From contig CAWCMR010000009.1 of assembly GCA_963796685.1 (NCBI GenBank), positions 352,001-416,000 on the forward strand: a stretch of DNA of 64,000 nt. The letters run 5' to 3'. The notes beneath the pieces are model-generated. The model did no database searches, was not told the origin of the DNA, and saw only the letters and a list, made by a program, of their open reading frames with translations. Positions 5,074 through 54,186 of the stretch are shown one piece after another (the first letter of the stretch is position 1; every line of letters begins with the position of its first letter). This DNA is from an uncultured delta proteobacterium. Lineage in GTDB: Bacteria; Myxococcota_A; Polyangia; Fen-1088. A program made the translations under genes and the position numbers.

Positions 5074-6537
5074 ATGGGCGACGGAGAGAAGAGCCGTCGA
5101 GCGCTCGACGCAACCATTCTGGTCAAGGGCTCGTCTACTGGCGACGCAGGCTCGATTGCCGACGGTCTTGCAGGTACCCGGCTGCAACACTTCGCGCTGG
5201 TGCGCCTGCTCGGGCGCGGCGGCATGGGCGCGGTGTATTACGGCACCGACCTATCCCTGGATCGCCCGGTGGCCATCAAGGTGCTGGCCCTCGATGTCGC
5301 GCAGGATCCGGAGATCGTCGACCGTTTCGTGCTGGAGGCACGCGCCCAGGCCCGCCTGCGCCATCCCAACGTCGCGCAGATCTTCTTCATCGGCCAGGAC
5401 CGCGGTTTTCACTTCTTCGTCATGGAGTACCTGGAGGGGCCGGGCCTCGATGCCTTGCTGGCCAAGGGCGCGCCCTTGCCGGTGGCCGATGCCTTGGACT
5501 ACACCCTGGCGGCGGCGCGCGGCCTGCGCGCGGCCTTGGCGCATGGCTTCGTCCACCGCGACGTCAAGCCCTCGAACCTGATGCTCGACCACGAAGCGGG
5601 GATCAAGATCCTCGATTTCGGGCTGGTCAAGAGCATGCACGGCGACTCTCAGCTCACTCGCGACGGCGCCATCATCGGCTCGCCGCTGTACATGTCGCCC
5701 GAGCAGGGACGCGGTCAGGTGGCCGATCACCGCTCCGACATTTACTCGCTCGGCTGCACCCTCTTCCACATGCTGTGCGGGCGGCCGCCCTTTGCCGGAC
5801 CTTCGCCGGTCGGCATCATCACCATGCACGTCACGGATCGCGCGCCCGCCGTGCGCGACCTCAATGCCAAGGTGCCACAGGCCGTGGCTCGCATCGTCGA
5901 GCGCATGATTGCCAAGAAACCCGACGATCGCTTCGCCGACTACGACGAGCTGATCGCCGCGCTGGAGGCCGCGCGCGCGCCTCGCCGGGAGCTCGGCGGC
6001 ATGGGAGCACGAGGGATCGCGCTCGGCATCGATAGCCTGTTGCTGCTGGCGGCCGCGTACTTCATCCGCCTTTGGGTGCTGCCGCTCGCCCTGGTCTACT
6101 TCGTCCTGTGTCATCGACTGCTCGGACAGACCCCGGGCAAGTGGCTGCTCGGCATTCGCGTCGAAGGCGCGACCGGCGGCCGCCTGACGTGGAAGGCTGC
6201 TCTCGTCCGATTCGCCGCATTTGCCTGGGGGCCCTTGGCCTGGACCCTGCTGGCGGGCTTCGTCTACACCGTACACGGCAACGAGCACGTGTCGTTCCAG
6301 CTCTCCAGCCTGACCTTGTCCGAGCTCGCGGTGCCCATCGTCTACATCGCGCTCGCCACCGCCATCCTGGTCGGCTACCTGGCAGGATTCCTGCTGGTGG
6401 CGTTTCACCCCAAGCGGCAGGCCCTGCACGATCTGCTGGCCAAGACCGTGGTCTACATCAAGTCGCGCGCTCCCGCTGGCGAGATGGTCGAAGTCGTCAA
6501 GAGCACCACCGGCATCAGTCTATCGAGACACCGGTAG
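5074..6537 (+). CDS. Ser/Thr protein kinase fused to a C-terminal RDD membrane domain
   Basis: GRGGMG, HRDVKPSN, DFG, YMSPE; RDD motifs RGIALGID, GQTPGKWLLGIRV, RQALHDLLAKTVV. Confidence 0.92.
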   Translation: MGDGEKSRRALDATILVKGSSTGDAGSIADGLAGTRLQHFALVRLLGRGGMGAVYYGTDLSLDRPVAIKVLALDVAQDPEIVDRFVLEARAQARLRHPNVAQIFFIGQDRGFHFFVMEYLEGPGLDALLAKGAPLPVADALDYTLAAARGLRAALAHGFVHRDVKPSNLMLDHEAGIKILDFGLVKSMHGDSQLTRDGAIIGSPLYMSPEQGRGQVADHRSDIYSLGCTLFHMLCGRPPFAGPSPVGIITMHVTDRAPAVRDLNAKVPQAVARIVERMIAKKPDDRFADYDELIAALEAARAPRRELGGMGARGIALGIDSLLLLAAAYFIRLWVLPLALVYFVLCHRLLGQTPGKWLLGIRVEGATGGRLTWKAALVRFAAFAWGPLAWTLLAGFVYTVHGNEHVSFQLSSLTLSELAVPIVYIALATAILVGYLAGFLLVAFHPKRQALHDLLAKTVVYIKSRAPAGEMVEVVKSTTGISLSRHR

Positions 6538-6559: not shown

Positions 6560-7372
6560 CTACTCGTTCCTGGCGTGCACCATGGGCACGAAGGCCACGC
6601 CCCGTTGCACGTGCCTTGCCACGGTGCCGTCGGCGCGCTTTTCCAGAATGACCAGCACATCGTGGGCCTCCTTCCCGACCGGCGCCACCAGGCGACCGCC
6701 GGGCTTGAGCTGGTCGATGAGCGCCTGGGGGACCTCGGGCGGCGCCGCGGTCAGGATGATACGGTCGAAGGGCGCCGCCTCCGGCCACCCGAGATAGCCG
6801 TCGCCGCAACGGGTCCTTATGCGACCGTGGCCGAGGCGATCGAGGTTGGCCCGCGCCTTCTGGCAGAGCGGCTCGACGATCTCGATCGAGTACACCTCTT
6901 TGGCCAGGTGGTCGAGGATGGCGGCCTGATATCCGGACCCGGTTCCAATCTCGAGCACACGACTGTCGGGCTCGGGAGCCAGGAGGCTGCTCATCAGGGC
7001 CACGATGAAGGGGCGCGAGATGGTCTGCTCCCAACCTATCTGCAGCGCGGTGTCCTCGTAGGCGAAGGAGCGCTTCTCCTCCGGCATGTACTCCTCGCGG
7101 GGCTCGGCACGCATGGCTTGCAGGACCCTGCGATCGCTGATACCGCGGGACACGATGGTCGTGCGAATCATCTCCTCGCGCGCCTTGGCGTAGGATGCGG
7201 GCGCCGGGGAAACAGGCGCTGGGGCCGGCTCGGCCGCCGGAGCGAGATCGGATTCAGGCTTGGGCTTGGCCCGAGAGACGTAGCGGGTCGAGGCGCAGCC
7301 GGCCGAGAGACACGCACTGCCGAGCAAGACGAACCACGCGATCGAAACGGAACGGGGAAAGATGCGCTTCAC
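6560..7372 (-). CDS. pcm: Protein-L-isoaspartate(D-aspartate) O-methyltransferase with N-terminal lipoprotein-like signal
   Basis: AYEDTALQIGWEQTISRP, VLEIGTGSGYQAA, GDGYLGWPEAAPFDRI, QLKPGGRLVAPVG, FVPM; GTG start inferred. Confidence 0.92.
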   Translation of the reverse strand: MKRIFPRSVSIAWFVLLGSACLSAGCASTRYVSRAKPKPESDLAPAAEPAPAPVSPAPASYAKAREEMIRTTIVSRGISDRRVLQAMRAEPREEYMPEEKRSFAYEDTALQIGWEQTISRPFIVALMSSLLAPEPDSRVLEIGTGSGYQAAILDHLAKEVYSIEIVEPLCQKARANLDRLGHGRIRTRCGDGYLGWPEAAPFDRIILTAAPPEVPQALIDQLKPGGRLVAPVGKEAHDVLVILEKRADGTVARHVQRGVAFVPMVHARNE

Positions 7373-7552
7373 TTCAATTTCCTCTAAGCGGTGGCGAAAA
7401 GGCGGGTGCGGGAAAAGTATGACCTCGCTCGCCATCCCCATCCAGGGCGATTGCGCTCGCCCCTCCCGCTTTTCGCGACTGCGGAACCTGCAGCTCTTGG
7501 GCCGGGACGGAAGCCGGCTCGACCAGCACTTCACGGACCCGTGGGCGGCTGA

Positions 7553-10251
7553 CTACGAGTACTGCGCCAGCCAGCGGCGGCTGTGGCTGTCGAGAGCCTC
7601 GGGCACGGGTACGAGGAAGCGCATGCCAAAGGAATCGGTGATGAGGTGACGGCCGTCGTCCAAACGGCGGATGTGATCTTCTTGTTCGACGACGAAGCTG
7701 CGTGGCCCCCGATCCGTGACCACGTGCCACTCGGACCGCGTCGCTTCGTGCACGACGCGCTCGATGCGCGTGACCTGGGGTAGGAACTCGCTTTGGGCCA
7801 GGCCGGTCAGCAGTGCCTGGCGCGAGTCCTCGGCAAGGGCATCGACGTGCTCGACAAGGGCCCGGTCATGCCCAAGCCCGTCGACGAGGCACACGAAGCC
7901 ATCGGGATGGGTGAGCGGGAAACAGCGACGTGGCACCACGAGGACGGGCGCGCCGCCCGCACCGTCTTTGGCCCAGAGATTACCCTCGCCGTCGCACTCG
8001 ATGGCCAGCCGGCCAGCTTCGATGGACGGCAGCATCAGGTATTCCGTTTCCTCCTCGTCTTGCGCCTGCGCAACCTCCGCATCGCGTCGGGCGGCGGATG
8101 AAACCTGGGCGCGATGCAGACGCGCGTATTCGCCGTCGAGGGCGAGCAGCTCGGCGTGCGTTCCACGCTCGGCCAACCGGCCGTCCTTGATCACGAGCAA
8201 CATGTCCGCCTTGCGCAGGGTGCTCAATCGATGGGCGATGGCGATGGTGGTGCGGCCCGCGACCACGTTGTCGAGCGCGCGCTGAATCTCGCGTTCGGTG
8301 TGCGTGTCCACCGCGGAGGTCGCCTCGTCGAGCACCAAAATCCGCGGGTCGACCAGGATGGCGCGCGCGATGGCGATGCGTTGGCGCTCGCCGCCCGACA
8401 ACGATTGGCCGCGCTCGCCGACCACCGAGTCGTAGCCTTCGGGCAGCTTCAAGATGAAGTTGTGCGCATGCGCGGCCCGGGCAGCCTCGATGATCTGGGC
8501 GAAACTGGCGTTCGGCTGGCCATACCCGACGTTGTCGGCGATGGTGCCGAAAAAGAGAAAGGGTTCCTGCAGGACGATACCGATGTGCTTGCGATAGGCC
8601 TCGATGGAGAGCCGCCTTATGTCGTTGCCGTCGACACGCACCGCGCCCCCCGAGACGTCGTAGAAGCGGCACAGAAGGTTGGCGACCGTGCTCTTGCCCG
8701 AGCCGGTGTGGCCCACGATGCCGATCATCTGACCGGGGGCCACTTTGAAGCTGACGTCGTCGAGCACCAGCCTGCTGCCGTACCGGAACGACACCCGATC
8801 GAACTGGATCTCGCCGCGCATACCGTCGATAGGGACGGGATCCTTGGGATCGAAAACCGTCGGCACGCGGTCGAGAATTTCGAACAGTCGTTGCGCGGCC
8901 GCCGACGCGCGCTGGGTGGCGGTGAGCATGCGGCTCATGCTCTCCACCCGGGTGTAGAAACGGCCGATGTACGCGATGAACGCGGTGAGCACGCCGACGG
9001 TGATCTGGTGGTGCAGGACCTCGCGCGCGCCGGCCGCCCAAACGACGAGCAACCCAATCTGATTGAGCAACGCGACCGACGGCCAGAAGAACGTCCACAT
9101 GGCGTTGTTGCGGTTGTTGATTTCGACGACGCGCTGGTTGGCTTGGGCGAAACGGGCGATCTCGCGCCGCTCTTGCGAGAAGGCTTTGACCACGCGAATG
9201 CCCGGGATGGTGTCGGCCAGGATGTTGGTCATGGCCGACCACATGCGCCCGCCGCGCAGATAGCCGTGCAACATCTTGCCGCGAATACGCATGATGAGCC
9301 ACGCGATGGGGGGAAGGAGATGATGGCCGCGACGGCGAGCGTGGTATCGAGCGAAAGCAGGACGACACAGGTGCTGACGATCATCAGCACATCGGTGGCG
9401 AAGTCGACCAGCGTGTCGGAGAGAAACGAGCACAGGTGCTCGGTGTCCGAGCTGATGCGCGCGATCAGATCGCCGGTGCGCTTGCCACCGAAGTACTCCA
9501 GGCTGAGCTTCTGCAAGTGCGAAAAGGCGCGGTTGCGCAGATCCGCCGCCACCTTCTCGGTCACGATGGCCAGCACCGCTCCTTGCGCCCAGACCAGCAG
9601 CCACGCGACGGCGGCCGCGCCGCCCAGGCTGCCGAGATAGAGCAGGACTTTGGGCAGGGCGGCCTGCATGGTGAGCTGCCCGGCCTGGCCCGGCACCAGC
9701 ACCTGGTCGACGAGCGGCATGGTCAAGTAGGGCGGGATCAGGCCCGCCGCCGTGCTCGCAAGGGTGAGCAGCAGGCCGAAGAGCACGGCGCCAAGGTGCG
9801 GCCGCGCAAAACCCAAGAGTCGCAAGAGCGGGTGCCTTCCGCTTACCGGCAACTCGGAGCTGTCCTGCTCGTCGGCGGGCGCCACGGGCCGCGCATGGGC
9901 CTGCCGCTTGCCCTGCTGCGCCTCGAAGGCGTCGGCGAACTCGGTTGCCTCCTTGGCCGCGGCCAAGGTGTGAAAGCGGCGGACCACGGTCCGCGTCCCC
10001 TCGATCACGCGCACCTCGCCGAGTCCCGCGTATTCGCGACGGTCGAGGCGAAGTCCCGGCGTGAGCGCGCACGCCGTCCACCCTCCGTCGGCGGCTTTCC
10101 AGCACACGCGCATGGAGGTCAAGGCAAGGGTGGAGGCGGTGTAGTGCAGATGCTCGTCCAGATCCGGCGCGAAGATCGCGCGCACGCTCTCGCCGTCGGC
10201 GAGCGTGAGTCCGAGGGGAGGGTCGAGGAGCGAAGAAGCAGCATCGGTCAT
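7553..10251 (-). CDS. ABC exporter (N-terminal extension + TMD + NBD) fused to a C-terminal DUF1854-like domain; one frameshift near 9310
   Basis: GHTGSGKST, LSGGERQR, VLDEATS, IAHRLST; C-terminal FPLTHPDG...WHVVTDRG...ITDSFGMRF; adding one G to the G6 run at 9308-9313 joins ISFP to PIAWLIMR. Confidence 0.85.
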
Positions 10252-10332
10252 GGGCGAGGATCCGGTAGCGCCCACTTTACCAGGATCGTCACCAGCGAGG
10301 GAAAGCACGTCGGGCGCCGACGCGAGCCCAGC

Positions 10333-11307
10333 TCACGTGAAAACTCGGCCCTGCCGCGCGGATACCAGGTAGCTTTCCCCACCCCGGCCTTGCCAGGCGC
10401 GCAGGTCAAACGCCGCATCGTGGTCGCCGGCACGGATACGGTAGGCGGAGATGTTCTCATAGGTCAGCGGCTGGCCGGGCAGGCAAGTTTGGGGCAGCCC
10501 CGGGGCGAGCAGGAAACACGCCGATCCGCGATTCGAGTCCGGACGTTTGTCGACCACGGTGCCAAGGCCATCGGCTTCGACCAGGACTGCCGTCATTTCG
10601 TCGACAGCGATCGCGCGCGGTGCTTTGGCCCATCCGTCTTGCGCCAAGCGAGCCAGGAAGGCGAGCAGCCTTCCCATGCGATCGCGATCGTGGAAGTGGC
10701 TGTCGGTGATCGCGTTGCGCAGGTACGCGTAGGGCGTCCCTAGGCTCGGTGAATAGACGAGCGCACGCTCGAGGGTCATGCACGCGTGGTAGGGATCGGC
10801 GAGCGCTTCGCTGGAATACACCGTATCGTTGCTGGCGGAGAACAGGAATTCGCCCAGTACCGCCAAGCCTGCGCTCGAGCCTCCCATGGGCACACCCCGG
10901 CGCAAGAGATCGCCGATGGCCTGCTGAACGGGCGTGTCCTTCCACATCCTGACGTAGTCCCACTGGTCGCCACCCTGGATGAAGAGCGCGTCGGCGCCGC
11001 GGATGGTCCGGAGTACCGCGGGGTCCGCGGTTGCGTCGCGCGACGAGAAGATCAGGGTCTCCACGGACGATGGATGCGGCGGCGGCAGGTCTTGATAGAT
11101 GTAGCGGCCGTATTCGTCGCTGCCGTCGGCGCCAATGACGACGAAGCGGCCCCAGCCCGATTTGGCGAAGAGCCAAGCAAAGGCGCTGTCGACTTCGGGC
11201 GGCGGGCCCTCCGGCGGTCCGCCGAGCAAGGCCATCCCGGGCGTGACCGGCCCGCGCGGCGTGGGGCGGCTCGAAGAATGGACGTAGGACGCGTATCCCG
11301 TGGGCAT
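10333..11307 (-). CDS. cphB: Cyanophycinase-like serine peptidase (peptidase S51)
   Basis: ALFIQGGDQ, GGSSAG (catalytic Ser), DSHFHDRDRMGRL, IAVDEMTA; 3 bp downstream of the cphA-like gene. Confidence 0.8.
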   Translation of the reverse strand: MPTGYASYVHSSSRPTPRGPVTPGMALLGGPPEGPPPEVDSAFAWLFAKSGWGRFVVIGADGSDEYGRYIYQDLPPPHPSSVETLIFSSRDATADPAVLRTIRGADALFIQGGDQWDYVRMWKDTPVQQAIGDLLRRGVPMGGSSAGLAVLGEFLFSASNDTVYSSEALADPYHACMTLERALVYSPSLGTPYAYLRNAITDSHFHDRDRMGRLLAFLARLAQDGWAKAPRAIAVDEMTAVLVEADGLGTVVDKRPDSNRGSACFLLAPGLPQTCLPGQPLTYENISAYRIRAGDHDAAFDLRAWQGRGGESYLVSARQGRVFT

Positions 11308-11310
11308 GGT

Positions 11311-13401
11311 CTAGACCTCGCGCAACAGCAATGGAAGGCGCGCCGCAATCGTTTCCGCCGGTACGCCCATGGCCCACGCCGCACCCGCTGCCTGGAGCCA
11401 GCCGCGCCACGCGCCTTCGGCAAGAGTCCGCTCCGCGCCAAGAGGCACCGCGTGCTCCTTCCCATCGCACGACAGAAATACCAGATGGCCATCGTGAAGG
11501 AAGACGGCGGCACATCCCCCGTGCCGGGCGCGAACCGACGCGTCGTCGCCCACGATCATCATCGTGCCGGCAATGGAGTCCACGGCTGCCAGCGCTGCAT
11601 CGTCGCGGTCATCGATCACCACGGTGCCGCGAGGCTGGGCGACCAAGACCAAGACGCCAGCGGCTCGGGCGCTCTCGGCATCGAGTACGGCCGCGACTTC
11701 GGGGTCGAACGTCAAAATCGCGGCATCGACGCAATCGAGACCCAAGCCCTCCTCGCGAATGCTCGCCGGATCGCGCTCCAGCACAGCCGAGTCGACCTCG
11801 GGACACAGCAGGACCGCAAGACTGCCGGAAACGCCGCTTTGATCGCCGCCTTTGATGGGCTCTCCATCGAGAAAGAGGCCGCGCGAGCTCGCCGTGCCGA
11901 TCCCGCGGCCAGGCGCGCGCAGGAGCTCGGCCAGAAGGCGGCCAGTGCGAGCCCGATCGCCGGTGCCGCTCACCAGGGCGAGCGGGATGCGACCGGTCTT
12001 GCCGTCGGGAAAGAGCGAATCGATGATGGCCTCGCAGACCGGACGGTGGCTGTCGCACAGGGGCGGAAAATGAAACGCGATGGTCGGTTCGGCGTTCACT
12101 TCGAGAATCGCGCCCCCCTGCTCTTCCAGTGGCCGCGCGATATCCTCGGCGACCACGTCCAACCCGGCCACATCCAGACCGATCACGCGTGCCGCGCGCA
12201 CGCATTGCGCGGCCACACGTGGGTGTACGAGATCGGTCACATCGCTAACACCCGCGCCCGCCCAAGAATGGGCGATACGACTCAAGACCACCTCGCGCCC
12301 GGCCGGCACCACGGCGGCGAGCGCGTAACCCTGCTCGGCCAACAGCTGGGGCGTGTCGTCGTCCGGGCAAACCCGGGTCAGGGGCAACCGCAGATCGTCG
12401 CCGCGCCTGGGATCCCGGTTGGCGATCTCCATGAGCTGCGCAACCGTGTGCTGGCCATCCCCGGTCAGACGAACCGGTTCGCGGCGCACCGCCGCGACCA
12501 ACCGATCGCCCACCACGGTCAGGCGGTATTGCGCCCCTGGCACGAAGCGCTCGACCAGCACCTCTTCGCGATACTCCCGAGCGGCGGCGTAGGCAGCCAC
12601 CACCTGCTCGCGGGTGTGCAGGTGAAGGCCAATCCCGTGGCCATAGTCGGCGCTCGCGGGCTTGACTACCACCGGCGTGCCCAGCTCGCACGCGATGGAC
12701 CATGCGTGCTCGGCGCTGTCGGCTTGACGACCGATGGGAACGGGAATCCCGACCTGCGCGAGCAGCTCTTTCGTCAGCTTCTTGTCGAGCGAGATCCACT
12801 CGGCGATCTTGCCCGTGCGTTCGGTCACCGAGGTTCGGATCCGTCGGCGCTGCGCTCCGTGACCAAGCTGCACCAGGCTCTCACCGTCGAGGCGGCGATA
12901 GGGAATGCCCCTGGCGCGCGCGGCGGCCACCAGTGGTCCGGTCGCCCGGCCCAGGCACACGTCTTCGGCAAGAGAGCGCAGCCGTGCCGTTTCTGCGGGC
13001 ACATCGAGAGCTTCGCCGGCCAGGGCCGCCAAGCACATGCGTCGAGCGGATTCGAGGCAAGCGCGCGCGAGGCGTTCCTCTTCATAGGCGAAGGCGATGT
13101 CCACGGTCGCGGACGACGCGCGCGGGGCGATGGCCGCGCAACCCGCGGGCGTGCTGGCCAGGGCTTGCAGATGCACGGCAACACCGCGCAAGGCATCGGC
13201 CACGCGCACTTGCGGAGGCCGCGACGGGTCCTCGCAGGCCGGGGACCAGCCCGGAAGCGAGGCGGACAGTCGCTGCTCGAGCTCCACCACGCCGTGGGCG
13301 GGTAGGCCTGGGTACGCCGCGACCGACACGCGCGCCTCGAGCGCGGAATCCGGCCCCCACACGTTGGGGCCCTGCAGCGCCCTCACCTTGAGCAATTCCA
13401 T
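11311..13401 (-). CDS. Cyanophycin synthetase-like ATP-grasp ligase (696 aa; CphA2/CphA'-like, degenerate Mur-ligase domain)
   Basis: RALQGPNVW N-terminus, RGIPYRRL..SLVQLGHG, DKKLTK, VVKP, GDGQHTV.QL..NRDPRRG, DVTD, GLDV, LEVNAEP, GRIP; Mur P-loop reads GTGDRAR instead of GTNGKTT. Confidence 0.88.
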   Translation of the reverse strand: MELLKVRALQGPNVWGPDSALEARVSVAAYPGLPAHGVVELEQRLSASLPGWSPACEDPSRPPQVRVADALRGVAVHLQALASTPAGCAAIAPRASSATVDIAFAYEEERLARACLESARRMCLAALAGEALDVPAETARLRSLAEDVCLGRATGPLVAAARARGIPYRRLDGESLVQLGHGAQRRRIRTSVTERTGKIAEWISLDKKLTKELLAQVGIPVPIGRQADSAEHAWSIACELGTPVVVKPASADYGHGIGLHLHTREQVVAAYAAAREYREEVLVERFVPGAQYRLTVVGDRLVAAVRREPVRLTGDGQHTVAQLMEIANRDPRRGDDLRLPLTRVCPDDDTPQLLAEQGYALAAVVPAGREVVLSRIAHSWAGAGVSDVTDLVHPRVAAQCVRAARVIGLDVAGLDVVAEDIARPLEEQGGAILEVNAEPTIAFHFPPLCDSHRPVCEAIIDSLFPDGKTGRIPLALVSGTGDRARTGRLLAELLRAPGRGIGTASSRGLFLDGEPIKGGDQSGVSGSLAVLLCPEVDSAVLERDPASIREEGLGLDCVDAAILTFDPEVAAVLDAESARAAGVLVLVAQPRGTVVIDDRDDAALAAVDSIAGTMMIVGDDASVRARHGGCAAVFLHDGHLVFLSCDGKEHAVPLGAERTLAEGAWRGWLQAAGAAWAMGVPAETIAARLPLLLREV

Positions 13402-13513
13402 CGGCGTATCTATTGCCGATCCATGTGTCCGAGTCCAGGCCTCCTGGCACACCCTCTGCTCGACCTGTCCGAGCAGCTCGCTGCCCTGACCGCGCGATTC
13501 AGGACCTGAGCCG

Positions 13514-14536
13514 CTACCGGCCTCCTGCGTGCCACGGCGTGAAGCCGCGCCCGCGCGCCGGCTGGGCATCGAGGTCGAGCCAACGCAGCATGATCGCGCG
13601 TGCGAGGTGCACGCCGGCGGACTTGCGCATCACATGCCGGACCGCTTCGGCAGCCGCGTGATCGCCGCCGGCCTCCAGACCCACGACCACCAGGTACAGA
13701 TCCTCCACGTCGTCGTCTTGCGCGGGATCCACGCGCTTGGCGGCAGCGAGCGCGTCCCCACGTCTGCCGTCGAGCGCGGCAAAGTAGGCCTCGAGCACGG
13801 CCACCGAATCGGGAAAGCCGACAGCGCGGTAGTCGTCGAGCGCGGATTCGGCATAGCCCACGAGCGCCTGCTTGACCGAGCCCGAGCGCGACTCGGCCAG
13901 CATGCGCGTAAGGTAGGCGCGGTGCCAGCGATCCTTCTGCAGGGCGAGGGTCGCGCGCCCCCGCGCATCCCACGTTCCACGCGCAGCGCACAGGGTCGCC
14001 TGATCGTTCTCGGCCAGGGCCGCGGCCGGATCGCCCTGCGCTTCCCGGACCATCATCATCATGTTGTGCGACCAGAACTCGTCGGCCAGCTCGGGGTGCT
14101 TGGCGAGGGCGGGGATAAGGGCCAGCAACGCCGCGCCCGCGCGTTCGAAGTCGCCCGCATACGCGAAGCGCATCGCGCGCACGCGTGCCGCAAGATACGC
14201 GAGGTGCACATCGTCGCCTGCATCCGCGGTCGCGAACGCGATCTGCTGGTCTGCTTTGGTCATGTCGTTCGCCGCGATGGCCTTCACCGCCGCATCGAGA
14301 GCCTGCTGGAGTGCCGGAGGCAAAGGCGATGGTCCGGGCGGGACGGGTGGGGCCGGAGCTGGTGCTGGAAGTGGAGGCGCAGGGGCCACCCCGGGAGCGG
14401 CCGAAGTGGGTGGACCGGGAGCGGGCGGAGGCGGTGCGGGCGCGAACGAGGTCGGGGCGACCGGAACCGAGGCGCACGCGCCAGGCAGGGCGGCCGCAAG
14501 AGTCAGACCGGCGATGGCGGGCAGTCGGTATCGCAT
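13514..14536 (-). CDS. Hypothetical lipoprotein, Pro-rich linker plus alpha-helical (TPR-like) domain
   Basis: Signal ending PGA-C; poly-Pro stretch; Ala-rich helical remainder; GC3-rich frame. Confidence 0.65.
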   Translation of the reverse strand: MRYRLPAIAGLTLAAALPGACASVPVAPTSFAPAPPPPAPGPPTSAAPGVAPAPPLPAPAPAPPVPPGPSPLPPALQQALDAAVKAIAANDMTKADQQIAFATADAGDDVHLAYLAARVRAMRFAYAGDFERAGAALLALIPALAKHPELADEFWSHNMMMMVREAQGDPAAALAENDQATLCAARGTWDARGRATLALQKDRWHRAYLTRMLAESRSGSVKQALVGYAESALDDYRAVGFPDSVAVLEAYFAALDGRRGDALAAAKRVDPAQDDDVEDLYLVVVGLEAGGDHAAAEAVRHVMRKSAGVHLARAIMLRWLDLDAQPARGRGFTPWHAGGR

Positions 14537-14774
14537 GGGGAAAGCTTACACGTCTTCGGGAGCACCGGCGACAGTGCCCTTTGCCTCGCAATCCCGCGGC
14601 AAGACGAAACTTTTCGCCCAGTCGGGCGGCCAAGGGCGGCGGTCGAACATTGCATTGCGCGCTCATCGCGCTAGTCTCCGGTGCGGTTACGCGTGGGTGG
14701 AGGATCGATCTCGTTGTTGTTTCAGGTATCAGTCCCTCCTGCCACAACTCGAATCAGCAAAGGAGGATCGGATC

Positions 14775-15620
14775 ATGGGGAAGTCAATGATGCGTGGAAA
14801 GCTGTTTGGGCTGTTCTTGGTCGCCGGTGGATTGCTCGTGCCGCGCGCGACTCTGGCGGATGACGACAGTAGATGCGCGGGGCTACCCTCGCAAAGTGCG
14901 CTGCAAAGTGCGCTGGTGGCCGCAGTCGCGGCGGAAACCAGCGGGCTCAACAATCACATGTGGGCCACCGTCGTCAATCGCGACGGAGTGGTCTGCGCCG
15001 TGGCTTTCTCGGGCAGCAATCGCGCCGCCCAATGGCCGGGCAGCCGCGTTGTCGCGGCACAGAAGGCCAACACCGCGAACGCCTTCAGCCTCGACAGCTC
15101 GTCCGCGAGCAACGGCTCGGGGCAGCCGGCCGGACTGGCGCTTTCTTCGGCCAACCTCTACGCCGGCTCCAATCCCGGTGGCAGCGCGTACGAGTTGCAG
15201 ATCAGCAATCCGGTGGACACCACCGTCGCCTACGCCGGCAACCCGGAAAAATACGGAACCAAGAACGATCCCATGGTGGGTCACCGCGTGGGTGGCGTGA
15301 ACATCTTCGGCGGTGGCCTGGCGCTCTATACCCCGGGGCACGTGCTCATCGGAGGCTTGGGCGTCAGCGGAGACACTTCCTGCGCGGACCACTTCATCGC
15401 ATGGCGCACGCGCAATCAGCTCAACCTGGACCACCTCGGTGCATCGGGCTCGACTCCGGCGGTCGGCGGAGTCTCGGGCGATCCGCAGCGTCCCGACAAC
15501 ATCGTCTTCGACATCACCCCCAACCCTCAAGGCGGTACGGGAGTGAGCGCCGGGGGCTTCGGTCACCCCATGTGCGTGAACACGGGAAACCAGCTCGCAC
15601 TTCCCGCCGTTCGACCGTAA
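14775..15620 (+). CDS. Secreted GlcG/HbpS-family heme-binding protein
   Basis: RBS AAGGAGG; signal peptide; WATVVNRDG, AAQKANTANAF, GGGLALY..GGLGVSGD..CADH. Confidence 0.8.
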   Translation: MGKSMMRGKLFGLFLVAGGLLVPRATLADDDSRCAGLPSQSALQSALVAAVAAETSGLNNHMWATVVNRDGVVCAVAFSGSNRAAQWPGSRVVAAQKANTANAFSLDSSSASNGSGQPAGLALSSANLYAGSNPGGSAYELQISNPVDTTVAYAGNPEKYGTKNDPMVGHRVGGVNIFGGGLALYTPGHVLIGGLGVSGDTSCADHFIAWRTRNQLNLDHLGASGSTPAVGGVSGDPQRPDNIVFDITPNPQGGTGVSAGGFGHPMCVNTGNQLALPAVRP

Positions 15621-15660
15621 ACCAAGGATCCAGCCAATTTGCGCCGGAGGCGCCGGGCGC

Positions 15661-16905
15661 TCAACCCGCCAGTCGCAACAAGGAGCTGCTCATGGCCTCG
15701 CACACCTGCTCCATCCGCATCGCGGACTGGTTGTTGATGCGCCCGCCGGCCTCGCCTTGCGCGTAGAGCAGCAGGGTGACGTGCCCGTCGACGATGACCG
15801 GCGACACGAGGACCTCGGTGGGGGCGTGGCAACGAAACGCGTTCCACAACGGGCCGTGTACGGCCATGCCGTCGGGCGGTGGCGTGCCTCGAAAGGTCGA
15901 CCGGCGGCTGCGGGCGATACGGAAACACGAAGGCAGGGAAAGCGAGAAGGTGAGGCCCTCGACCTCGGACCGCACGTGCCCGTCGGAGAAGCCGAAACGT
16001 CCCCGCGCGACCGCGCCTGCCACGGAAAACATGGCGCCGACCCCGAAGCAGGTGCGCATGAAGGCAAACAAGCTGTCCGAGAGGTCCTGCTGGTCGGCGG
16101 CGAAACGAATCTGATCGACGGCGAGCTGCGCGCCCGCGCCGGTGATGGGCACCACCAAGGGGGTCAGAGGATTGCGTGAGGCCACCCGAGTCGGCTTGGG
16201 CGGCGTACGAGCATCCATGGGTGGGATGTAGGCAAGCGGCGTGGGCGTGAAGCAAAGCGCGTCTTCCATGACCGCCACGGGTGCGGCAGGCTCGCTCGTG
16301 TGCGTGCCCGGCTTGAGCGGCGCGAGGCGAATGCCTTGGTGGTGGCCTTGGGGAGGCTTGCGATGGGTGCGCAAGGCCGGCCGGATATCATCGTCCTTGG
16401 CCACCGGCTTCCTGGACGCGGTCTGGTGCGGGCTTGGCAGTGCCAGCGCCGGTCGCGGGACGCCGGGCTTACCCTTCCTGCGCACCCCGTAGAGAAGCTC
16501 GAGGTGCCGGGCAATGGCCAGCTCCGTGGCCACCATGGGATCGACCGTCGCGCCCAGAATGAACGCCAGTCGGTCGAGAGCGCGTGGGTTGGCCGGGTTG
16601 GCCATGGCCACCGCGACCCGACGGCGGTTGGTGAGAAAGAGAGGAATGGCCTGTAGCTCGACCGCTTGGTGGACGACGACGCGCCGGCGCAACGCCAGCT
16701 CGGAGCGCGCGAAATCCGCCTCCAGCGCCGGCGGCACGCCGAACTGTTCGGCCAGCGCCAGCGCCACCTGATCGTTCGTGAGAGCCCCTGATTCGACGAA
16801 CCAGGTTCCGATGCGCACCCCCTGCGCATGTTGCTGGGCGAGCGCAGCCTGTAGAACGGCCTCCGTGATGAGGCCCTGTTTGACCAGAATTTCACCCAAC
16901 CTCAT
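15661..16905 (-). CDS. MshEN/T2SSE_N domain protein with Pro-rich linker and C-terminal GAF-like domain, no ATPase (paralog 1)
   Basis: Tandem RLGEILVKQGLIT..LQAALAQQ / RIGTWFVESGALT motifs; AIPL..VAVAMANP; no Walker A. Confidence 0.8.
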   Translation of the reverse strand: MRLGEILVKQGLITEAVLQAALAQQHAQGVRIGTWFVESGALTNDQVALALAEQFGVPPALEADFARSELALRRRVVVHQAVELQAIPLFLTNRRRVAVAMANPANPRALDRLAFILGATVDPMVATELAIARHLELLYGVRRKGKPGVPRPALALPSPHQTASRKPVAKDDDIRPALRTHRKPPQGHHQGIRLAPLKPGTHTSEPAAPVAVMEDALCFTPTPLAYIPPMDARTPPKPTRVASRNPLTPLVVPITGAGAQLAVDQIRFAADQQDLSDSLFAFMRTCFGVGAMFSVAGAVARGRFGFSDGHVRSEVEGLTFSLSLPSCFRIARSRRSTFRGTPPPDGMAVHGPLWNAFRCHAPTEVLVSPVIVDGHVTLLLYAQGEAGGRINNQSAMRMEQVCEAMSSSLLRLAG

Positions 16906-17106
16906 GCCTGCCTCGCCTTCTTCGCACGAGCTTTCGCCTGATGCGGCTAGGTCGATCACCTGTCATCTCGCGAATGCTATCGGCACCTGCAAAGAGGTTC
17001 TGTAGCCCCGGCGCAGCGCAGGTTCAACGCACTGTCCAACCTCGCGACCGCAAAGCCCTTGCGTCTCGAGACATGGTGCAAGAACATGCCCGTAGAAAGA
17101 ACTACC

Positions 17107-18447
17107 ATGAGCGACCCCGTCTTCTGGCACCGCCTGCAATTCGGTTTCACCGCCACCTACCACTATCTGTTCCCGCAGCTCACCATGGGGCTGGCGCTGT
17201 TCATCGTCATCCTGAAGATGCTGGCCCGCCGCTCCGGCAACCAACGCTACCAAGACGCGGCGCGGTTCTGGATCCGCATCTTCGGCATCAACTTCGCGAT
17301 CGGGGTGGTCACCGGCATTCCCATGGAATTCCAGTTCGGCACCAATTGGGCGCAGTTCACCCAGCGCACCGGCCCCGTCATCGGCCAGACCCTGGCCATG
17401 GAAGGCATGTTTGCCTTCTTTCTCGAATCGAGCTTCCTCGGCGTGCTCATCTGGGGCGAGGAAAAGTTCGGGCGCAAAATCCACGACCTTGCCGCGTGGG
17501 CGCTCTTCGCGGGCTCGTGGCTTTCCGGGTACTTCATCATCGCCACCAACGCCTTCATGCAAAACCCGGTCGGGCATCGGGTCGCCCTCGACGGCAGCTT
17601 CCAGATCGCCGATTTTCTCGCCTTCCTGCTCAATCCGTGGGCACTCGCGCAGTACGCGCACAACATGGTCGCCTCGGTGGTCACGGCCTCCTTCGTGGTG
17701 ACCGCGGTGGGGGCGTACTACTCCCTGCGCGAGGCCCATCTCGAACAGGCGAGGATCTTTCTCAAGCTCGGCGTGATCGTCGGGCTCGTGGCCAGCCTCC
17801 TGGTGGCGTTCCCGACCGGCGACCGACAGGGCAAGTTGGTGGCCAAGCACCAACCCATCGCCCTGGCGGCGATGGAGGGCCGATGGAACAGCGGGACCTG
17901 GGCCGAGATCAACTTCATCGGTCAGCCTGACGTCAAGAACCGGCGCCTCGACAACCCCATCCGCATGCCGGGCATCCTCAGCTTCATCGCCTACGGTTCC
18001 TTCGACAGCGACGTCAAGGGACTGAGCGAATTTCCCTCTTCCGAATGGCCGAAGAACATCGAGCTGCTCTACTACAGCTTCCACATCATGGTCGGTCTCG
18101 GAACCATCCTCATCGCGCTCATGGGCCTGTCGGCCTTTCTGCTTTGGCGCGGCCGACTCGAGCGCGCGCGCTGGCTGCACTGGATCCTCATGCTGGCCTT
18201 TCCCTTCCCCTACATCGCCACCACGGCGGGCTGGATGACCGCCGAGCTCGGCCGCCAGCCGTGGCTGGTGTACGGCCTTCTGCGCACGGGCGACGGCAGC
18301 AGCCAGCTGGTTCACAGCGGTCAGACCGTCTTCACCTTGCTGGGATTCGCCGGCCTCTTTGTCATCCTCGGCTTCCTGTTCGTGTACCTCATTCTGCGCG
18401 AAATCGAGCACGGTCCTGTGCCCCACGGCGCCCAGGCGGAGACATAG
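17107..18447 (+). CDS. cydA: Cytochrome bd ubiquinol oxidase subunit I
   Basis: RLQFGFTATYHYLFP, GIPMEFQFGTNW, EGMFAFFLES, QPIALAAMEG, GWMTAELGRQPW. Confidence 0.97.
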   Translation: MSDPVFWHRLQFGFTATYHYLFPQLTMGLALFIVILKMLARRSGNQRYQDAARFWIRIFGINFAIGVVTGIPMEFQFGTNWAQFTQRTGPVIGQTLAMEGMFAFFLESSFLGVLIWGEEKFGRKIHDLAAWALFAGSWLSGYFIIATNAFMQNPVGHRVALDGSFQIADFLAFLLNPWALAQYAHNMVASVVTASFVVTAVGAYYSLREAHLEQARIFLKLGVIVGLVASLLVAFPTGDRQGKLVAKHQPIALAAMEGRWNSGTWAEINFIGQPDVKNRRLDNPIRMPGILSFIAYGSFDSDVKGLSEFPSSEWPKNIELLYYSFHIMVGLGTILIALMGLSAFLLWRGRLERARWLHWILMLAFPFPYIATTAGWMTAELGRQPWLVYGLLRTGDGSSQLVHSGQTVFTLLGFAGLFVILGFLFVYLILREIEHGPVPHGAQAET

Positions 18448-18449
18448 CC

Positions 18450-19496
18450 ATGGAAATGCTCTGGTTCTGGCTCGTCAGTGTCATGGTGGCCATCTACTCC
18501 GTGATGGATGGTTTCGATTTCGGCGCCGGCATCCTGCACCACTTCGTGGCACGCACCGACGGCGAGCGCCGCCAGGTGCTGGGCGCCATCGGTCCGCTGT
18601 GGGACGGCAACGAGGTCTGGCTGCTCGCGGGTGGCGGCAGTCTCCTCCTCGCCTTCCCCGCCGTGCTCGCCGCGGGCTTCTCGGGCTTCTACCTGGCCAT
18701 GTTCATGGTGGTGTGGACGCTCATGCTGCGCGGGATTGCCATCGAGTTCCGCAGCCACGTGAAAAGCGGCATGTGGCGCGCGTTTTGGGACTTCGTCTTC
18801 AGCTTCGCCAGCACGCTGCTGCCCGTGCTGCTCGGCGCGGCCCTGGGCAATGTGGTGCGCGGGGTGCCGCTCGACAACACCGGCTACTTCAACATTCCGC
18901 TCTTCACTCACTTCGCCACCCACAATCCCGTGGGCATCCTCGACTGGTACACCGTGCTCATGGGCGTGTTCGTGCTGGTGACCCTGGCCAACCACGGCGC
19001 CCTGTTCTTGGCCTGGAAGACCGACGGTCCCGTGCACGAGCGCGCGCGCAGGCTGGCCCTGCCCCTGTCGGTGCTGACCGCGGTGCTGGGCGGCCTCGCC
19101 ACCCTTTCTACCGCGCAGGTCAACCCCGACATCTACGCCAACCTGCCGCACGCGCCTTTGGCCTGGATCGGACTCTTCCTCTTCGTGCTTGGACTGGCCA
19201 CCGCATTCACGGGCCAGTTGCGCGGGCGATTCCTCGTCGCCTTCCTGGGTAGCGCCGCCTTCGTCGTCGGCCTGCTCGTGGCCACCGCGGCGTGCGTGTT
19301 CCCGGTCATGCTCAAGTCCACCCTCGATCCTGCCTGGAGCCTCACCGCCTACAACGCCTCTGCCGGCCACCACGGCCTGGTCACGGGAACCAAGTGGTGG
19401 TTCCTCGGCTTCCCCATCGTCGTCGCCTACTTCGTCTTCCTGTTCCGCCTCCACCGCGGCAAGGTCAAGGCGCAGGCGGACGGTCAGGGCTACTGA
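18450..19496 (+). CDS. cydB: Cytochrome bd ubiquinol oxidase subunit II
   Basis: DGFDFGAG, IGPLWDGNEVWL, LRGIAIEFR, LTAYNASA; 2 bp after cydA. Confidence 0.97.
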   Translation: MEMLWFWLVSVMVAIYSVMDGFDFGAGILHHFVARTDGERRQVLGAIGPLWDGNEVWLLAGGGSLLLAFPAVLAAGFSGFYLAMFMVVWTLMLRGIAIEFRSHVKSGMWRAFWDFVFSFASTLLPVLLGAALGNVVRGVPLDNTGYFNIPLFTHFATHNPVGILDWYTVLMGVFVLVTLANHGALFLAWKTDGPVHERARRLALPLSVLTAVLGGLATLSTAQVNPDIYANLPHAPLAWIGLFLFVLGLATAFTGQLRGRFLVAFLGSAAFVVGLLVATAACVFPVMLKSTLDPAWSLTAYNASAGHHGLVTGTKWWFLGFPIVVAYFVFLFRLHRGKVKAQADGQGY

Positions 19497-50997: not shown

Positions 50998-51823
50998 CCA
51001 GCAAGCTCCTCACCCGCCCCCGAGCCCGATGGCTCTACGGCACAGCCATGGTCGGTCTGGGCGGCCTGCTGCTGCTCTTCCTCGTGCTTCCCTTCCTGGC
51101 CCTGGTTCTCGACGGCGGGCCCGACTCCATTCTGCGTGGGCTCGGGTGCGCGCTGACTTGGCCTGCGCTGCGCCTGAGCGTGGGCACCAGCCTCATCTCG
51201 GTGGCGCTGGTGGTCGTGGGCGGCACACCGCTGGCATGGTGGCTGGCGCGCTCGCGCTGGCGTTCGGCGCGCTGGCTGGAGATCCTGCTACAACTCCCGG
51301 TGGTCATTCCGCCCGCGGTGGGCGGCATCGCCTTGCTGCTCGCCTTTGGCCGAAGAGGGTTGTTCGGCGGCGTCCTCGACCGCCTGGGCTGGTCGCCCGC
51401 CTTCAGCTCCGTGGCGGTCGTCATGGCCCAGGTCTTCGTCTCGGCGCCGTTCTACATGCAGGCCGCGGTGCAAGCCTTCGGCCGCCTGGATCGCAACCTG
51501 CTGGCCGTGGGACGCAGCTTGGGTGCCTCACCGCCGCGGCTGTTCTTTCGCGTCGCCCTGCCGCTCGCGCGCCCGTGGCTGATTGGCGGCGCGGCCATGA
51601 CCTGGGCGCGCGCGCTGGGGGAGTTCGGCGCCACCTTGATGTTCGCCGGCAACATGACGGGAAGGACGCAGACCCTGCCCCTGGCCATCTACACCGCCTT
51701 GGAGCTCGACATTCACACCGCGCAGGCTCTTTCGCTCTTGCTGGTCGCGTTCGCCTTCGCCCTCCTGCTCCTTCTCCGACGCTTCAATCGCACGCTCGAA
51801 GCCGCGCGAAGGCCGGTGTCGCC

Positions 51824-51827
<4 letters not shown>
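50994..51827 (+). CDS. modB: Molybdate ABC transporter permease
   Basis: LPVVIPPAVGGIALL.AFGRRG, AQVFVSAPF, WARALGEFGATLMFAGN..G.TQTLPLAIY. Confidence 0.95.
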
Positions 51828-52624
<797 letters not shown>

Positions 52625-52641
52625 AGTAGGAGGTTCTTGCC

Positions 52642-54186
52642 ATGTCATCGCGTATCGCTCGCAAGCTCAGCCCTGCCCTCGCCGCCCTGGTGACCGTCTG
52701 GCTCTCGCTCTCGGGATGTGGCAGCGATTCGGGGCCCCAAGCCATCGATGCCGGATGGGACCTGACCGGCCCGAGCCTGGATGCAGGCGTGGGCGATGCC
52801 TTCGCACAAGACGACGTCTCGGTCGCGCCCTTCGATGCCGCGCAGATCGACGCCGCGCCAAACGATACCGGACCGGTCGTCGACACCGGCTCCGCCTTGG
52901 ACAGCGCGGGCATCGATGGGGCGCCCATGCCCGCATGCGCGTCCTTGGTGAATCCACTCTACATCATGAGCGGCGATACCCAGGTTCCGGTGGTGAAGAC
53001 GCTCGGCAAGGCCTTGCGCCAGGGTCCGAATCCCGTGACCCTGGTCTGGTACGCGACCGGCTCCTGCACCATCGTCGACGCCCTCTACAACGGCACCCCG
53101 CTGAAACAGGTGCCGTCCTACATCCCCGACGATCCCACGTGGGATCCCAGCGCCGGTGCGGTCCCGAGCTGCGCCTTGGAGAGCGCGGGCCACAGCCTGG
53201 ACATCGGCATCCCCATCGTCTTCCCCGAATCGTGCACCAGCACCACCCCACCCGCGGACCTGGCTGCATTCAAGGGTCCGGTGCAATCGATGATCTTCGT
53301 CGTTCCGCACAGCGCTTCGCCCGAGGTGATCAGCTCGGCCCAGGCAAAGCTGGTCTTCGGCCAAGGCGCCGCGGGCAACGTCGCGCCGTGGACCGACCCA
53401 ACCTTCTATTTCATCCGCCCGCCGACCAAGGGCACGCAGGTCAGCCTGGGCGCCCTCATCGGTCTGCCGGCGGCGCAATGGCTCGGCCAACAGATCAACC
53501 TTTCTCCCGACGTGGCGACCAAAGTGGCAACGTCGACGTCTCCCGAGAAGACCATCGGCATCCTGGGCAGTGAAATCCTCGACAGCGGCAGCAACCGAAC
53601 CAGCCTGAAGGCGCTGGCCTTCCAGGCCACCGGACAAACGAACGGCTTCCTGCCCGATTCCACGGCCACGACGTTCGACAAGCGCAGCGTTCGCGAAGGC
53701 CACTACCCGGCATGGTCCCACGTGATCTATCTGACCAAGGTCGCGGCCATCGATGGTGGCGCCGCCCAACCGGTCAATGCCAACGCCAAGCTGTTCATCG
53801 ACATCCTGACCGATGCGGCGAATCCCGGCGTCCCGGCCGGCCTCGATCCGGTTGCGCTGGTGGCCAACAAGGGCCTTGTCCCCCTGTGCGCCATGACCGT
53901 GACCCGCTCCGCCGAGGGTGGCAACCTTTCGCCCTTTGCCCCGCCCGATCCGTGCGGCTGCTCCTACGAGAGCAAGGTCGGCACGGCGCCTGCCTCGTGC
54001 GTGACCTGCGCGGCGACGACCCCCTGTGCTGCTGGCACCACGTGCCGCCACGGCTTCTGCGAGACCGACGACGGGCGAACCTCCCTCGCTGATTGCAGCG
54101 CGCTTCCCACAAACGCCACCCACGCGCAGATCATCAACAACGCCTGCACGGCCGGCGCGCGCTTCGAGAGCGATCCCATCCCGTGA
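52642..54186 (+). CDS. Large Cys-rich lipoprotein, probable periplasmic-binding-protein (PBP2/PstS-like) fold
   Basis: RBS AGGAGGT; LSG-C lipobox; Asp/Ala linker; ATGSC, MIFVVP...ISSAQAKLVFG, RPPTKGTQ, SVREGHYPAW resemble oxyanion PBP patterns; fold call is inference. Confidence 0.6.
   Translation: MSSRIARKLSPALAALVTVWLSLSGCGSDSGPQAIDAGWDLTGPSLDAGVGDAFAQDDVSVAPFDAAQIDAAPNDTGPVVDTGSALDSAGIDGAPMPACASLVNPLYIMSGDTQVPVVKTLGKALRQGPNPVTLVWYATGSCTIVDALYNGTPLKQVPSYIPDDPTWDPSAGAVPSCALESAGHSLDIGIPIVFPESCTSTTPPADLAAFKGPVQSMIFVVPHSASPEVISSAQAKLVFGQGAAGNVAPWTDPTFYFIRPPTKGTQVSLGALIGLPAAQWLGQQINLSPDVATKVATSTSPEKTIGILGSEILDSGSNRTSLKALAFQATGQTNGFLPDSTATTFDKRSVREGHYPAWSHVIYLTKVAAIDGGAAQPVNANAKLFIDILTDAANPGVPAGLDPVALVANKGLVPLCAMTVTRSAEGGNLSPFAPPDPCGCSYESKVGTAPASCVTCAATTPCAAGTTCRHGFCETDDGRTSLADCSALPTNATHAQIINNACTAGARFESDPIP

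Follow-up and report, generated by a model that had tools for sequence, protein, structure and literature searches.

Cyanophycin synthetases, which make the nitrogen-rich polymer cyanophycin, attract study both for their unusual non-ribosomal polymerase activity and as a way to green polymers. Two types, CphA1 and CphA2, are characterised, and the function of the related protein CphA' is unsolved. In cyanobacteria, CphA2 is paired with a second cyanophycinase gene, cphB2. CphA2 lacks the P-loop and the lid (M-lid) of the M domain and polymerises β-Asp-Arg, as described in PMC9427784 and PMC10273328. CphA genes have also been connected with an exporter. The preprint of Price et al. (bioRxiv 10.1101/072470) reports cofitness of DUF1854, an ABC transporter, cphA and cphA', proposes export of an amino-acid polymer and already records ABC-DUF1854 fusions; since the NCBIfam families NF052233 and NF052234 are moreover named 'cyanophycin metabolism-associated', this gene link is already published and catalogued. 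Here we describe a window of 64 kb, the whole stretch of DNA analysed (64,000 nucleotides of contig CAWCMR010000009.1, from an uncultured delta proteobacterium of soil), in which the gene for a truncated CphA-like ligase, cphAx, is followed on the minus strand by a gene for a cyanophycinase-like S51 serine peptidase (S51) and by an ABC-DUF1854 exporter gene. We suggest, at a probability of roughly 40%, that cphAx and S51 form an accessory module for polymer turnover or remodelling, which resembles CphA2/CphB2 in its logic and not in the chemistry of its pocket.

The truncated ligase cphAx and its S51 partner

The reading frame of cphAx is open from position 13569, and its start was set at Met57 (13401) by homologues and by position 1 of profile NF010623, which yields a protein of 696 residues. 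Both CphA profiles match it below their cut-offs (NF010623, 590 bits against 877; TIGR02068, 451 against 850). Because the match to the 871-position NF010623 covers positions 1–712 and a Pfam search finds no Mur-ligase domain in cphAx, the M-lid is missing. In residue-level alignments to CphA1 structures (PDB 7wac and 7txv), the M-domain P-loop reads GTGDRAR in cphAx instead of GTNGKTT, and the large loop of the G domain reads AHSWAGAG instead of ANLSTGG; a further G-domain motif is EVNAEPTIAFH. The metallopeptidase site of the CphA N-domain, given as Cx19HxxEH in PMC9262961, was not found in cphAx by a sequence check. A preliminary description of this DNA had likewise proposed a CphA-like ligase of 696 residues with these two altered loops and no N-domain motif, and the alignments bear it out on each of these points.

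By sequence, cphAx matches CphA1 chains of the PDB at 287–305 bits, compared with 158 and 154 bits for CphA2 chains. An AlphaFold model of the protein (predicted local distance difference test, pLDDT, 87.2; predicted template-modelling score, pTM, 0.85) superposes over its whole length on CphA1 (7wac, 7lgq) with template-modelling (TM) scores of 0.86–0.88 and on CphA2 with scores of 0.64–0.72.

Two phylogenies (FastTree, midpoint rooting) place cphAx among proteins of the CphA1 and CphA' types; CphA2 is not among their rows. The first comprises 114 rows, namely the window protein, two CphA proteins from contig C12 of the same genome and 111 of 120 listed matches, nine matches shorter than 600 residues having been left out. 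In this tree, 56 truncated proteins including cphAx form one clade with a Shimodaira–Hasegawa (SH)-like support of 100, within which the 38 proteins that carry AHSWAGAG, with overall identities of 59–85%, constitute a core sub-clade (support 95). The second tree joins 40 of the earlier proteins to 93 of the 100 CphA open reading frames (ORFs) of named genome loci, seven ORFs of more than 1000 residues being left out, and its 133 rows resolve canonical CphA (n=71, support 98), CphA' (n=33, support 97) and the truncated clade (n=24, support 100). The CphA' clade takes in the betaproteobacterial proteins of 721–730 residues as well as one C12 copy, and it is recognised by a large loop of the G domain that is five residues shorter, by the motif PGL[LV]MH and by the Cx19HxxEH site, which 28 of 32 members keep. 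None of this is seen in cphAx: its loop, AHSWAGAG, is of full length, its motif reads PTIAFH, HxxEH is absent, and no CphA lies alongside. Thus, on sequence grounds, cphAx is neither CphA' nor CphA1, and the earlier expectation that it might simply group with CphA' is contradicted by the separate clades (support 100 and 97). A plasmid search for CphA2 yielded none, its 90 records all being of the CphA1/CphA' type or N-acetylglutaminylglutamine synthetase (Ngg).

The start codon of S51 lies 3 nucleotides past the cphAx stop. The cyanophycinase that the preliminary description placed beside the ligase is borne out as an S51 cyanophycinase-like gene. Its product scores 71.8 bits against the cyanophycinase profile TIGR02069, below the cut-off of 126.6. 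Nevertheless, alignment to 3EN0 (and to 7UQW) reveals conserved GGDQ, GSSAG, DSHF-x2-RDRMGR and DE motifs, such that the Ser-His-Glu triad and the RxRxxR motif of 3EN0 are kept, at positions that are invariant in 8/8 orthologues. The protein has no signal peptide. The roles of the triad and the arginine-rich motif are those assigned in CphB structures. A prediction of the complex between cphAx and S51 (residues 25–324) returned a score of 0.00 and was run without controls, which makes it evidence for neither outcome.

The pairing of the two genes is strict. In each of the nine loci whose sequence continues beyond cphAx (the window, G436, G446, G443, G447, G448, L151, L152 and L153), S51 is the next gene downstream, although several of these are close kin and hence not independent. 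Because wider scans listed few cphAx loci (at least three among the 78 metagenome loci listed and at least two among the 77 genome loci listed), clade-wide synteny stands on these nine. About 45 members of the truncated clade (P0006-P0065) are known solely as proteins from metagenomes. Among 89 genomes of the order, all of one family and including the source genome (G000), an S51 homologue occurs in six, exactly those with a complete cphAx locus. Similarly, among the 155 CphA loci listed, the S51 profile exceeds 600 bits only in five cphAx loci, with weak matches of 22–40 bits in three others. Of the 17 genomes that have CphA/CphA' and lack cphAx, only G433 contains a cyanophycinase-like match above 70 bits; the other such matches (G401, G427) are in genera with no CphA match. 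The G433 gene (G433:C13:129144-129920) is more canonical, at 112 bits against TIGR02069, and lies ~11 kb from the CphA tandem. A planctomycete locus, L083, was considered as a combination of a protein-L-isoaspartate O-methyltransferase (PCMT), S51 and a truncated ligase and was rejected: what looks like a truncated ligase there is a full-length CphA1 that has Mur-ligase domains and a frameshift, and the S51 match is weak and ordinary.

The window contains no second CphA gene, in agreement with the preliminary description. However, contig C12 of the same genome carries a full CphA1 (51489-54083, 1111.8 bits) with ANLSTGG and GTNGKTT and, directly upstream of it, a CphA' of 720 residues (903.5 bits); the only DUF1854 gene and the only cyanophycinase-like gene of the genome are both in the window. 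Across the 89 genomes, CphA homologues are confined to two genera, g1 (13/13, counting the source genome) and g265 (11/11, with records of the relatives labelled 'Myxococcales bacterium' metagenome-assembled genomes, MAGs), and each of these 24 genomes carries a tandem of two CphA paralogues and a single DUF1854 gene. cphAx itself is found in seven (G000, G436, G443, G444, G446, G447 and G448), with six complete loci and one, that of G444, cut by the contig end; 400 further sampled genomes of the phylum gave no match to cphAx above 43% identity. Since a CphA1-CphA' tandem accompanies cphAx in this genome and in 7/7 cphAx genomes, the premise of a lone ligase, on which the preliminary description had built, fails. 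The related suspicion, that a full cphA1 elsewhere would form an obligate pair with the ligase, is borne out only in part, by the presence of cphA1. The conserved unit suggested by these gene contents is cphAx plus S51, as an accessory to the CphA1/CphA'/ABC exporter/DUF1854 system.

We note a regularity in the CphA/CphA' tandems themselves. In 25 tandem pairs (loci L074–L150), Cx19HxxEH is present only in CphA' in 23 and in the canonical partner in none, whereas the canonical partner alone carries R458, the M P-loop and a G loop of canonical type; the C12 pair (51414-56771; locus L235, 7418-12457) displays the same split. Judged by these motifs, canonical CphA and CphA' look complementary, Cx19HxxEH being the primer-making motif. 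In a third genus, g256, DUF1854 genes are present in both genomes (G401:C428:679-1062; G402:C2:1515496-1515876), with no CphA match at E<=1e-50 using cphAx as query, so that in this genus DUF1854 would either lack a recognisable synthetase or be accompanied by one that is far more divergent.

Active site, selection and proposed role

Positions of TeCphA1, with roles as given in PMC9427784, were mapped onto cphAx via the 7wac alignment and counted over the 56 rows of the truncated clade. The ATP-grasp core is intact, with K261, R309, E450 and N452 each kept in 56/56, and R323, which lies near the γ-phosphate and binds the Asp β-carboxylate in TeCphA1, is kept in 52. By contrast, N394, which binds the Asp β-carboxylate, S396, which lines the Asp pocket, and R458, which binds the Asp α-carboxylate, are each retained in 0/56, the first two being replaced by His in 50 and by Trp in 44 members, respectively. 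Gly is found in one of the 56 at G456, a position of oxyanion stabilisation, and the Lys of the M P-loop, which binds ATP in the M domain, is absent throughout, with varying replacements. The window protein has His, Trp, Thr and Ala at positions 394, 396, 456 and 458, and this combination is fixed in 38/38 members of the core sub-clade, where in addition the G-domain P-loop is ADYGHG, with H267 replaced by Tyr (38/38) and R269 by His. Like the local canonical CphAs, cphAx also keeps the IAE glutamate, which in TeCphA1 is in contact with the primer's terminal Arg (PMC9427784).

These replacements affect positions on which both characterised enzymes depend. In SuCphA1, an engineered S396W abolishes activity by filling the Asp site (PMC9427784), and StCphA2 keeps N393 and S395, where N393A and S395A are each inactive (PMC10273328). 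With the pocket residues replaced relative to both, the pocket of cphAx is therefore like that of neither CphA1 nor CphA2. A separate set of planctomycete CphAs labelled Isosphaeraceae (P0068, P0073-P0076 and P0081; locus L076, 7980-10697) is full-length with an intact M P-loop, and exhibits altered forms of the G motifs, KPRDADYG and N[TS]HLWDGG, together with His/Trp at 394/396, with Arg or Lys kept at 458. In L076, the variant CphA adjoins a second CphA and an ABC-DUF1854 pair.

Over six pairs of cphAx loci, the ratio of non-synonymous to synonymous substitution (dN/dS, Nei-Gojobori) is 0.07-0.12 in the G domain (6/6 pairs), 0.19-0.51 in the N domain and 0.26-0.39 in the M remnant. cphAx is thus maintained by purifying selection, with the G domain most constrained, and the decaying protein that the preliminary description had allowed for is not what is found. 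This pattern also bears on the possibility that cphAx does not ligate at all and acts instead as an ATP-binding scaffold or regulator at chain ends, controlling or targeting S51, or joins CphA1/CphA' oligomers. In favour of this, the natural change is of the S396W type that blocks the Asp site in SuCphA1, H267 and R269 of the G P-loop are replaced by Tyr and His, and CphA' provides a precedent for a non-canonical CphA paralogue that is maintained alongside CphA1. Yet the ATP/Mg ligands and R309 are invariant, the constraint on the G domain (dN/dS ~0.1) is the strongest in the protein, and the pocket residues themselves do not vary, as they would be expected to if the site were out of use. Given this selection pattern, we regard a non-catalytic role as improbable.

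As judged from its residues, cphAx is probably an active ligase that uses a nucleophile other than Asp and serves the turnover or remodelling of CphA1 polymer. In the scheme that we infer for its acyl substrate, its nucleophile and the flow of product to the exporter, S51 would cut the CphA1/CphA' polymer into β-Asp-Arg units or short fragments. cphAx would then, most likely, phosphorylate the C-terminal carboxylate of a cyanophycin-type chain, as CphA1 and CphA2 do, and would join the units or fragments back to chain ends, spending one ATP on each, whereas free L-Asp would not be taken as the incoming nucleophile. Because R309 and the IAE Glu are kept, cphAx most likely still engages a cyanophycin-type chain end, and because its M domain is vestigial, it would not add Arg. 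The logic of CphA2/CphB2 would in this way have been reached independently, with a different binding pocket. The specific cycle of release by S51 and re-ligation by cphAx, which is drawn by analogy, we offer tentatively, at somewhat worse than even odds. The idea of dipeptide salvage that the preliminary description had raised gains from the strict pairing of cphAx with S51.

Several observations weigh against turnover or remodelling of this kind. Salvage of dipeptides loses from the same comparison that defines the pocket, since the residues essential in CphA2, N393 and S395, are His and Trp in cphAx; the pocket is unlike that of CphA2, with His and Trp in 38/38 core members where StCphA2 needs N393 and S395, and the Trp at 396 matches the S396W change that abolishes SuCphA1 activity (PMC9427784). 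Owing to the replacement of R458 by Ala and of G456 by Thr, the pocket looks smaller and less polar, and not obviously fit for a charged dipeptide. In addition, no S51 was found within 8 kb of three more distant truncated relatives (L082, L113 and L096), and what points to an origin independent of CphA2 is the scores (305 against 158 bits; TM 0.87 for the model against 0.64-0.72).

The same pocket could instead accommodate a nucleophile other than Asp or β-Asp-Arg, such as another monomer, a capping group, a cross-link or an amine that serves as an anchor, in which case the product would be a modified or new poly-amino-acid, exported by ABC-DUF1854 where the genes are linked and trimmed or edited by S51. 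The loss of N394, S396 and R458 from all 56 clade members, while the ATP-grasp core is invariant, is consistent with such chemistry, and the fixation of H, W, T, A in 38/38 core members across 59-85% identity would accordingly point to a selected new binding site. However, the sequence names no candidate nucleophile, the strictly conserved partner is S51 and not the exporter, and the retained residues of the arginine-rich motif of S51 suggest an ordinary β-Asp-Arg substrate. We consider a novel nucleophile rather unlikely, though clearly less so than a protein that does not ligate.

Exporter linkage and neighbouring genes

In the window, the exporter gene is spread over two reading frames, of which 10308..9229 matches NF052233 at positions 23-341 (258 bits) and 10105..7553 at positions 340-760 (700 bits), the latter frame also containing the DUF1854 domain. 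This domain reaches 130.6 bits against PF08909 (cut-off 26.8) and 131 bits against NF052234, below the cut-off of 150. The orthologue in G436 (L068:7092-9854) is intact, with 920 residues and 975.5 bits against NF052233 (cut-off 880). The ABC-DUF1854 fusion named in the preliminary description is therefore present as such in G436, but not as a single frame in the window. Relative to the G436 orthologue, one base is missing at ~9310-9311 within a C run, and the extra base is also found on two related metagenome contigs that are ~95% and ~89% alike. A search of sequencing runs matched at best 0.16 or less of the sampled words in any run. Because the site is a homopolymer run and the assembly consists of 26 contigs with a completeness of 88.6%, the missing base could equally well be an assembly error or a real mutation, in the latter case a very recent loss.

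The deletion, together with the degenerate M P-loop, might be taken to mean that the whole cluster is decaying, with a frameshifted exporter and a 'dead' ligase as pseudogenes. Against this, every locus examined has open frames for cphAx and S51, no cphAx domain reaches a dN/dS of 1, and the exporter is the only DUF1854 copy of the genome and is intact in the closest relative, G436, and on the two related contigs, the deletion itself lying in a homopolymer run where an assembly error is equally likely. In view of the selection pattern, decay is very improbable.

Each genome has a single exporter copy, which as a rule is divergently oriented next to CphA'-CphA1 (G435, G434, G437 and G441), whereas in G000 and G436 it is located away from that tandem and beside cphAx-S51. 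Overall, it adjoins cphAx-S51 in four of the nine loci and in two gene orders, cphAx-S51-ABC::DUF1854 in G000 and G436 and ABC-DUF1854-cphAx-S51 in G448 and L153. More generally, ABC and DUF1854 are found beside CphA genes in 42 of the 77 genome loci listed, from Planctomycetota, Betaproteobacteria, Chromatiaceae and others, and in Ralstonia this neighbourhood is visible in the deposited annotation. The linkage of cphAx to the exporter in two gene orders, as well as the export of an amino-acid polymer proposed by Price et al. (bioRxiv 10.1101/072470) from cofitness, would favour a new, exported polymer made from another nucleophile; on the other hand, the exporter is not adjacent in five of the nine loci, and as a single-copy gene it usually stands beside CphA'-CphA1. 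Returning to turnover or remodelling by cphAx and S51, the gene orders indicate that in this genus the module became operon-linked to the single-copy exporter gene.

The genes of the module are tightly packed on the minus strand (Table 1); a scan of the locus gave 0 promoter-like sites and terminator-like sites at chance level.

Table 1. Positions in the 64-kb window of the cphAx module, the frameshift site and the adjoining downstream gene
Feature	Position	Strand	Description and basis
cphAx	11311..13401	minus	696-residue CphA-like ATP-grasp ligase; NF010623 match and alignments to CphA1 structures
S51 gene	10333..11307	minus	324-residue cyanophycinase-like S51 serine peptidase; TIGR02069 match and 3EN0 alignment
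ABC-DUF1854 exporter	7553..10308	minus	NF052233 with C-terminal PF08909/NF052234; two frames in the assembly
Frameshift site	9305..9316	minus	Window TTCCCCCCATC against G436 orthologue TTCCCGCCCATC; DNA alignment
PCMT	6560..7534	minus	Protein-L-isoaspartate O-methyltransferase directly downstream of the exporter

Isoaspartyl chemistry made the PCMT gene an attractive member of the module. It was dropped as a mere neighbour because its position downstream of the exporter is confined to G000 and G436 and is seen in 0/6 other genomes of the genus checked (G435, G434, G437, G441, G433 and G431). Upstream of cphAx, the region 13402-15660 contains ORFs with no family matches except a weak HbpS-like match in 14061-15620, and has no counterpart in G436, where the MshEN-domain gene next to it (15661-16959) does have a counterpart, of 92% identity; this region may be the junction of a rearrangement that joined cphAx-S51 to the exporter. 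Elsewhere, at 978-2621, 5074-6537 and 17059-19496, the window contains two Ser/Thr protein kinase genes, one with an RDD domain, and a cytochrome bd oxidase pair, cydAB, for none of which a link to the module was seen.

Comparison with described systems

Neither a third, truncated CphA lineage with a rebuilt pocket nor a dedicated S51 partner was found described in the openly accessible literature searched, matches to 'cphA3' being Aeromonas β-lactamases. The clade would thus represent a further, independently truncated lineage with a rebuilt and conserved pocket, which includes the same Ser-to-Trp change that kills CphA1, and with a peptidase subfamily of its own. It offers a handle on how the large loop of the G domain sets substrate choice, and on what the CphA/CphA'/ABC/DUF1854 system makes and how its product is turned over. 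Were the nucleophile indeed neither Asp nor β-Asp-Arg, cphAx would define a new class of cyanophycin-synthetase-derived ligases and a chemically new polymer.

CphA2 (7TA5, 8FXH) is the closest parallel in overall logic. According to PMC10273328 and PMC9427784, it shares with cphAx three domains and a truncated, inactive M domain without P-loop and M-lid. Like CphA2, cphAx has no N-domain active site, its host also has CphA1, and a cyanophycinase-type gene lies alongside. Unlike CphA2, however, cphAx is nearer to CphA1 both in sequence (305 bits, compared with 158) and in fold (TM 0.86-0.88, compared with 0.64-0.72), carries His and Trp at the essential N393 and S395, with R458 and G456 also replaced, and belongs to a non-cyanobacterial lineage whose relatives are labelled Myxococcales MAGs. 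With CphA1 (7WAC, 7LG5), cphAx shares the fold of the N domain, G domain and M-core as well as K261, R309, R323, E450 and N452, but it lacks the M-lid, the Lys of the M P-loop and the Zn site of the N domain, and N394, S396 and R458 are all replaced.

The clusters of CphA/CphA', ABC and DUF1854 of Betaproteobacteria and others have the same exporter and DUF1854 families, and the genome studied here holds a comparable CphA'-CphA1 tandem on C12. In contrast to these clusters, cphAx is not CphA', and the exporter lies with cphAx-S51 in this genome and in G436; moreover, the classical cluster has no cyanophycinase, whereas the window module has S51. Finally, S51 belongs to the fold family of CphB (3EN0; TIGR02069) and conserves GGDQ, GxSAG, D-x-H-F, RxRxxR and the DE acid, yet it falls below the TIGR02069 cut-off, has an insertion of ~20 residues between the Ser and His motifs and, among the 155 CphA loci listed, constitutes a distinct subfamily that is found beside cphAx only.

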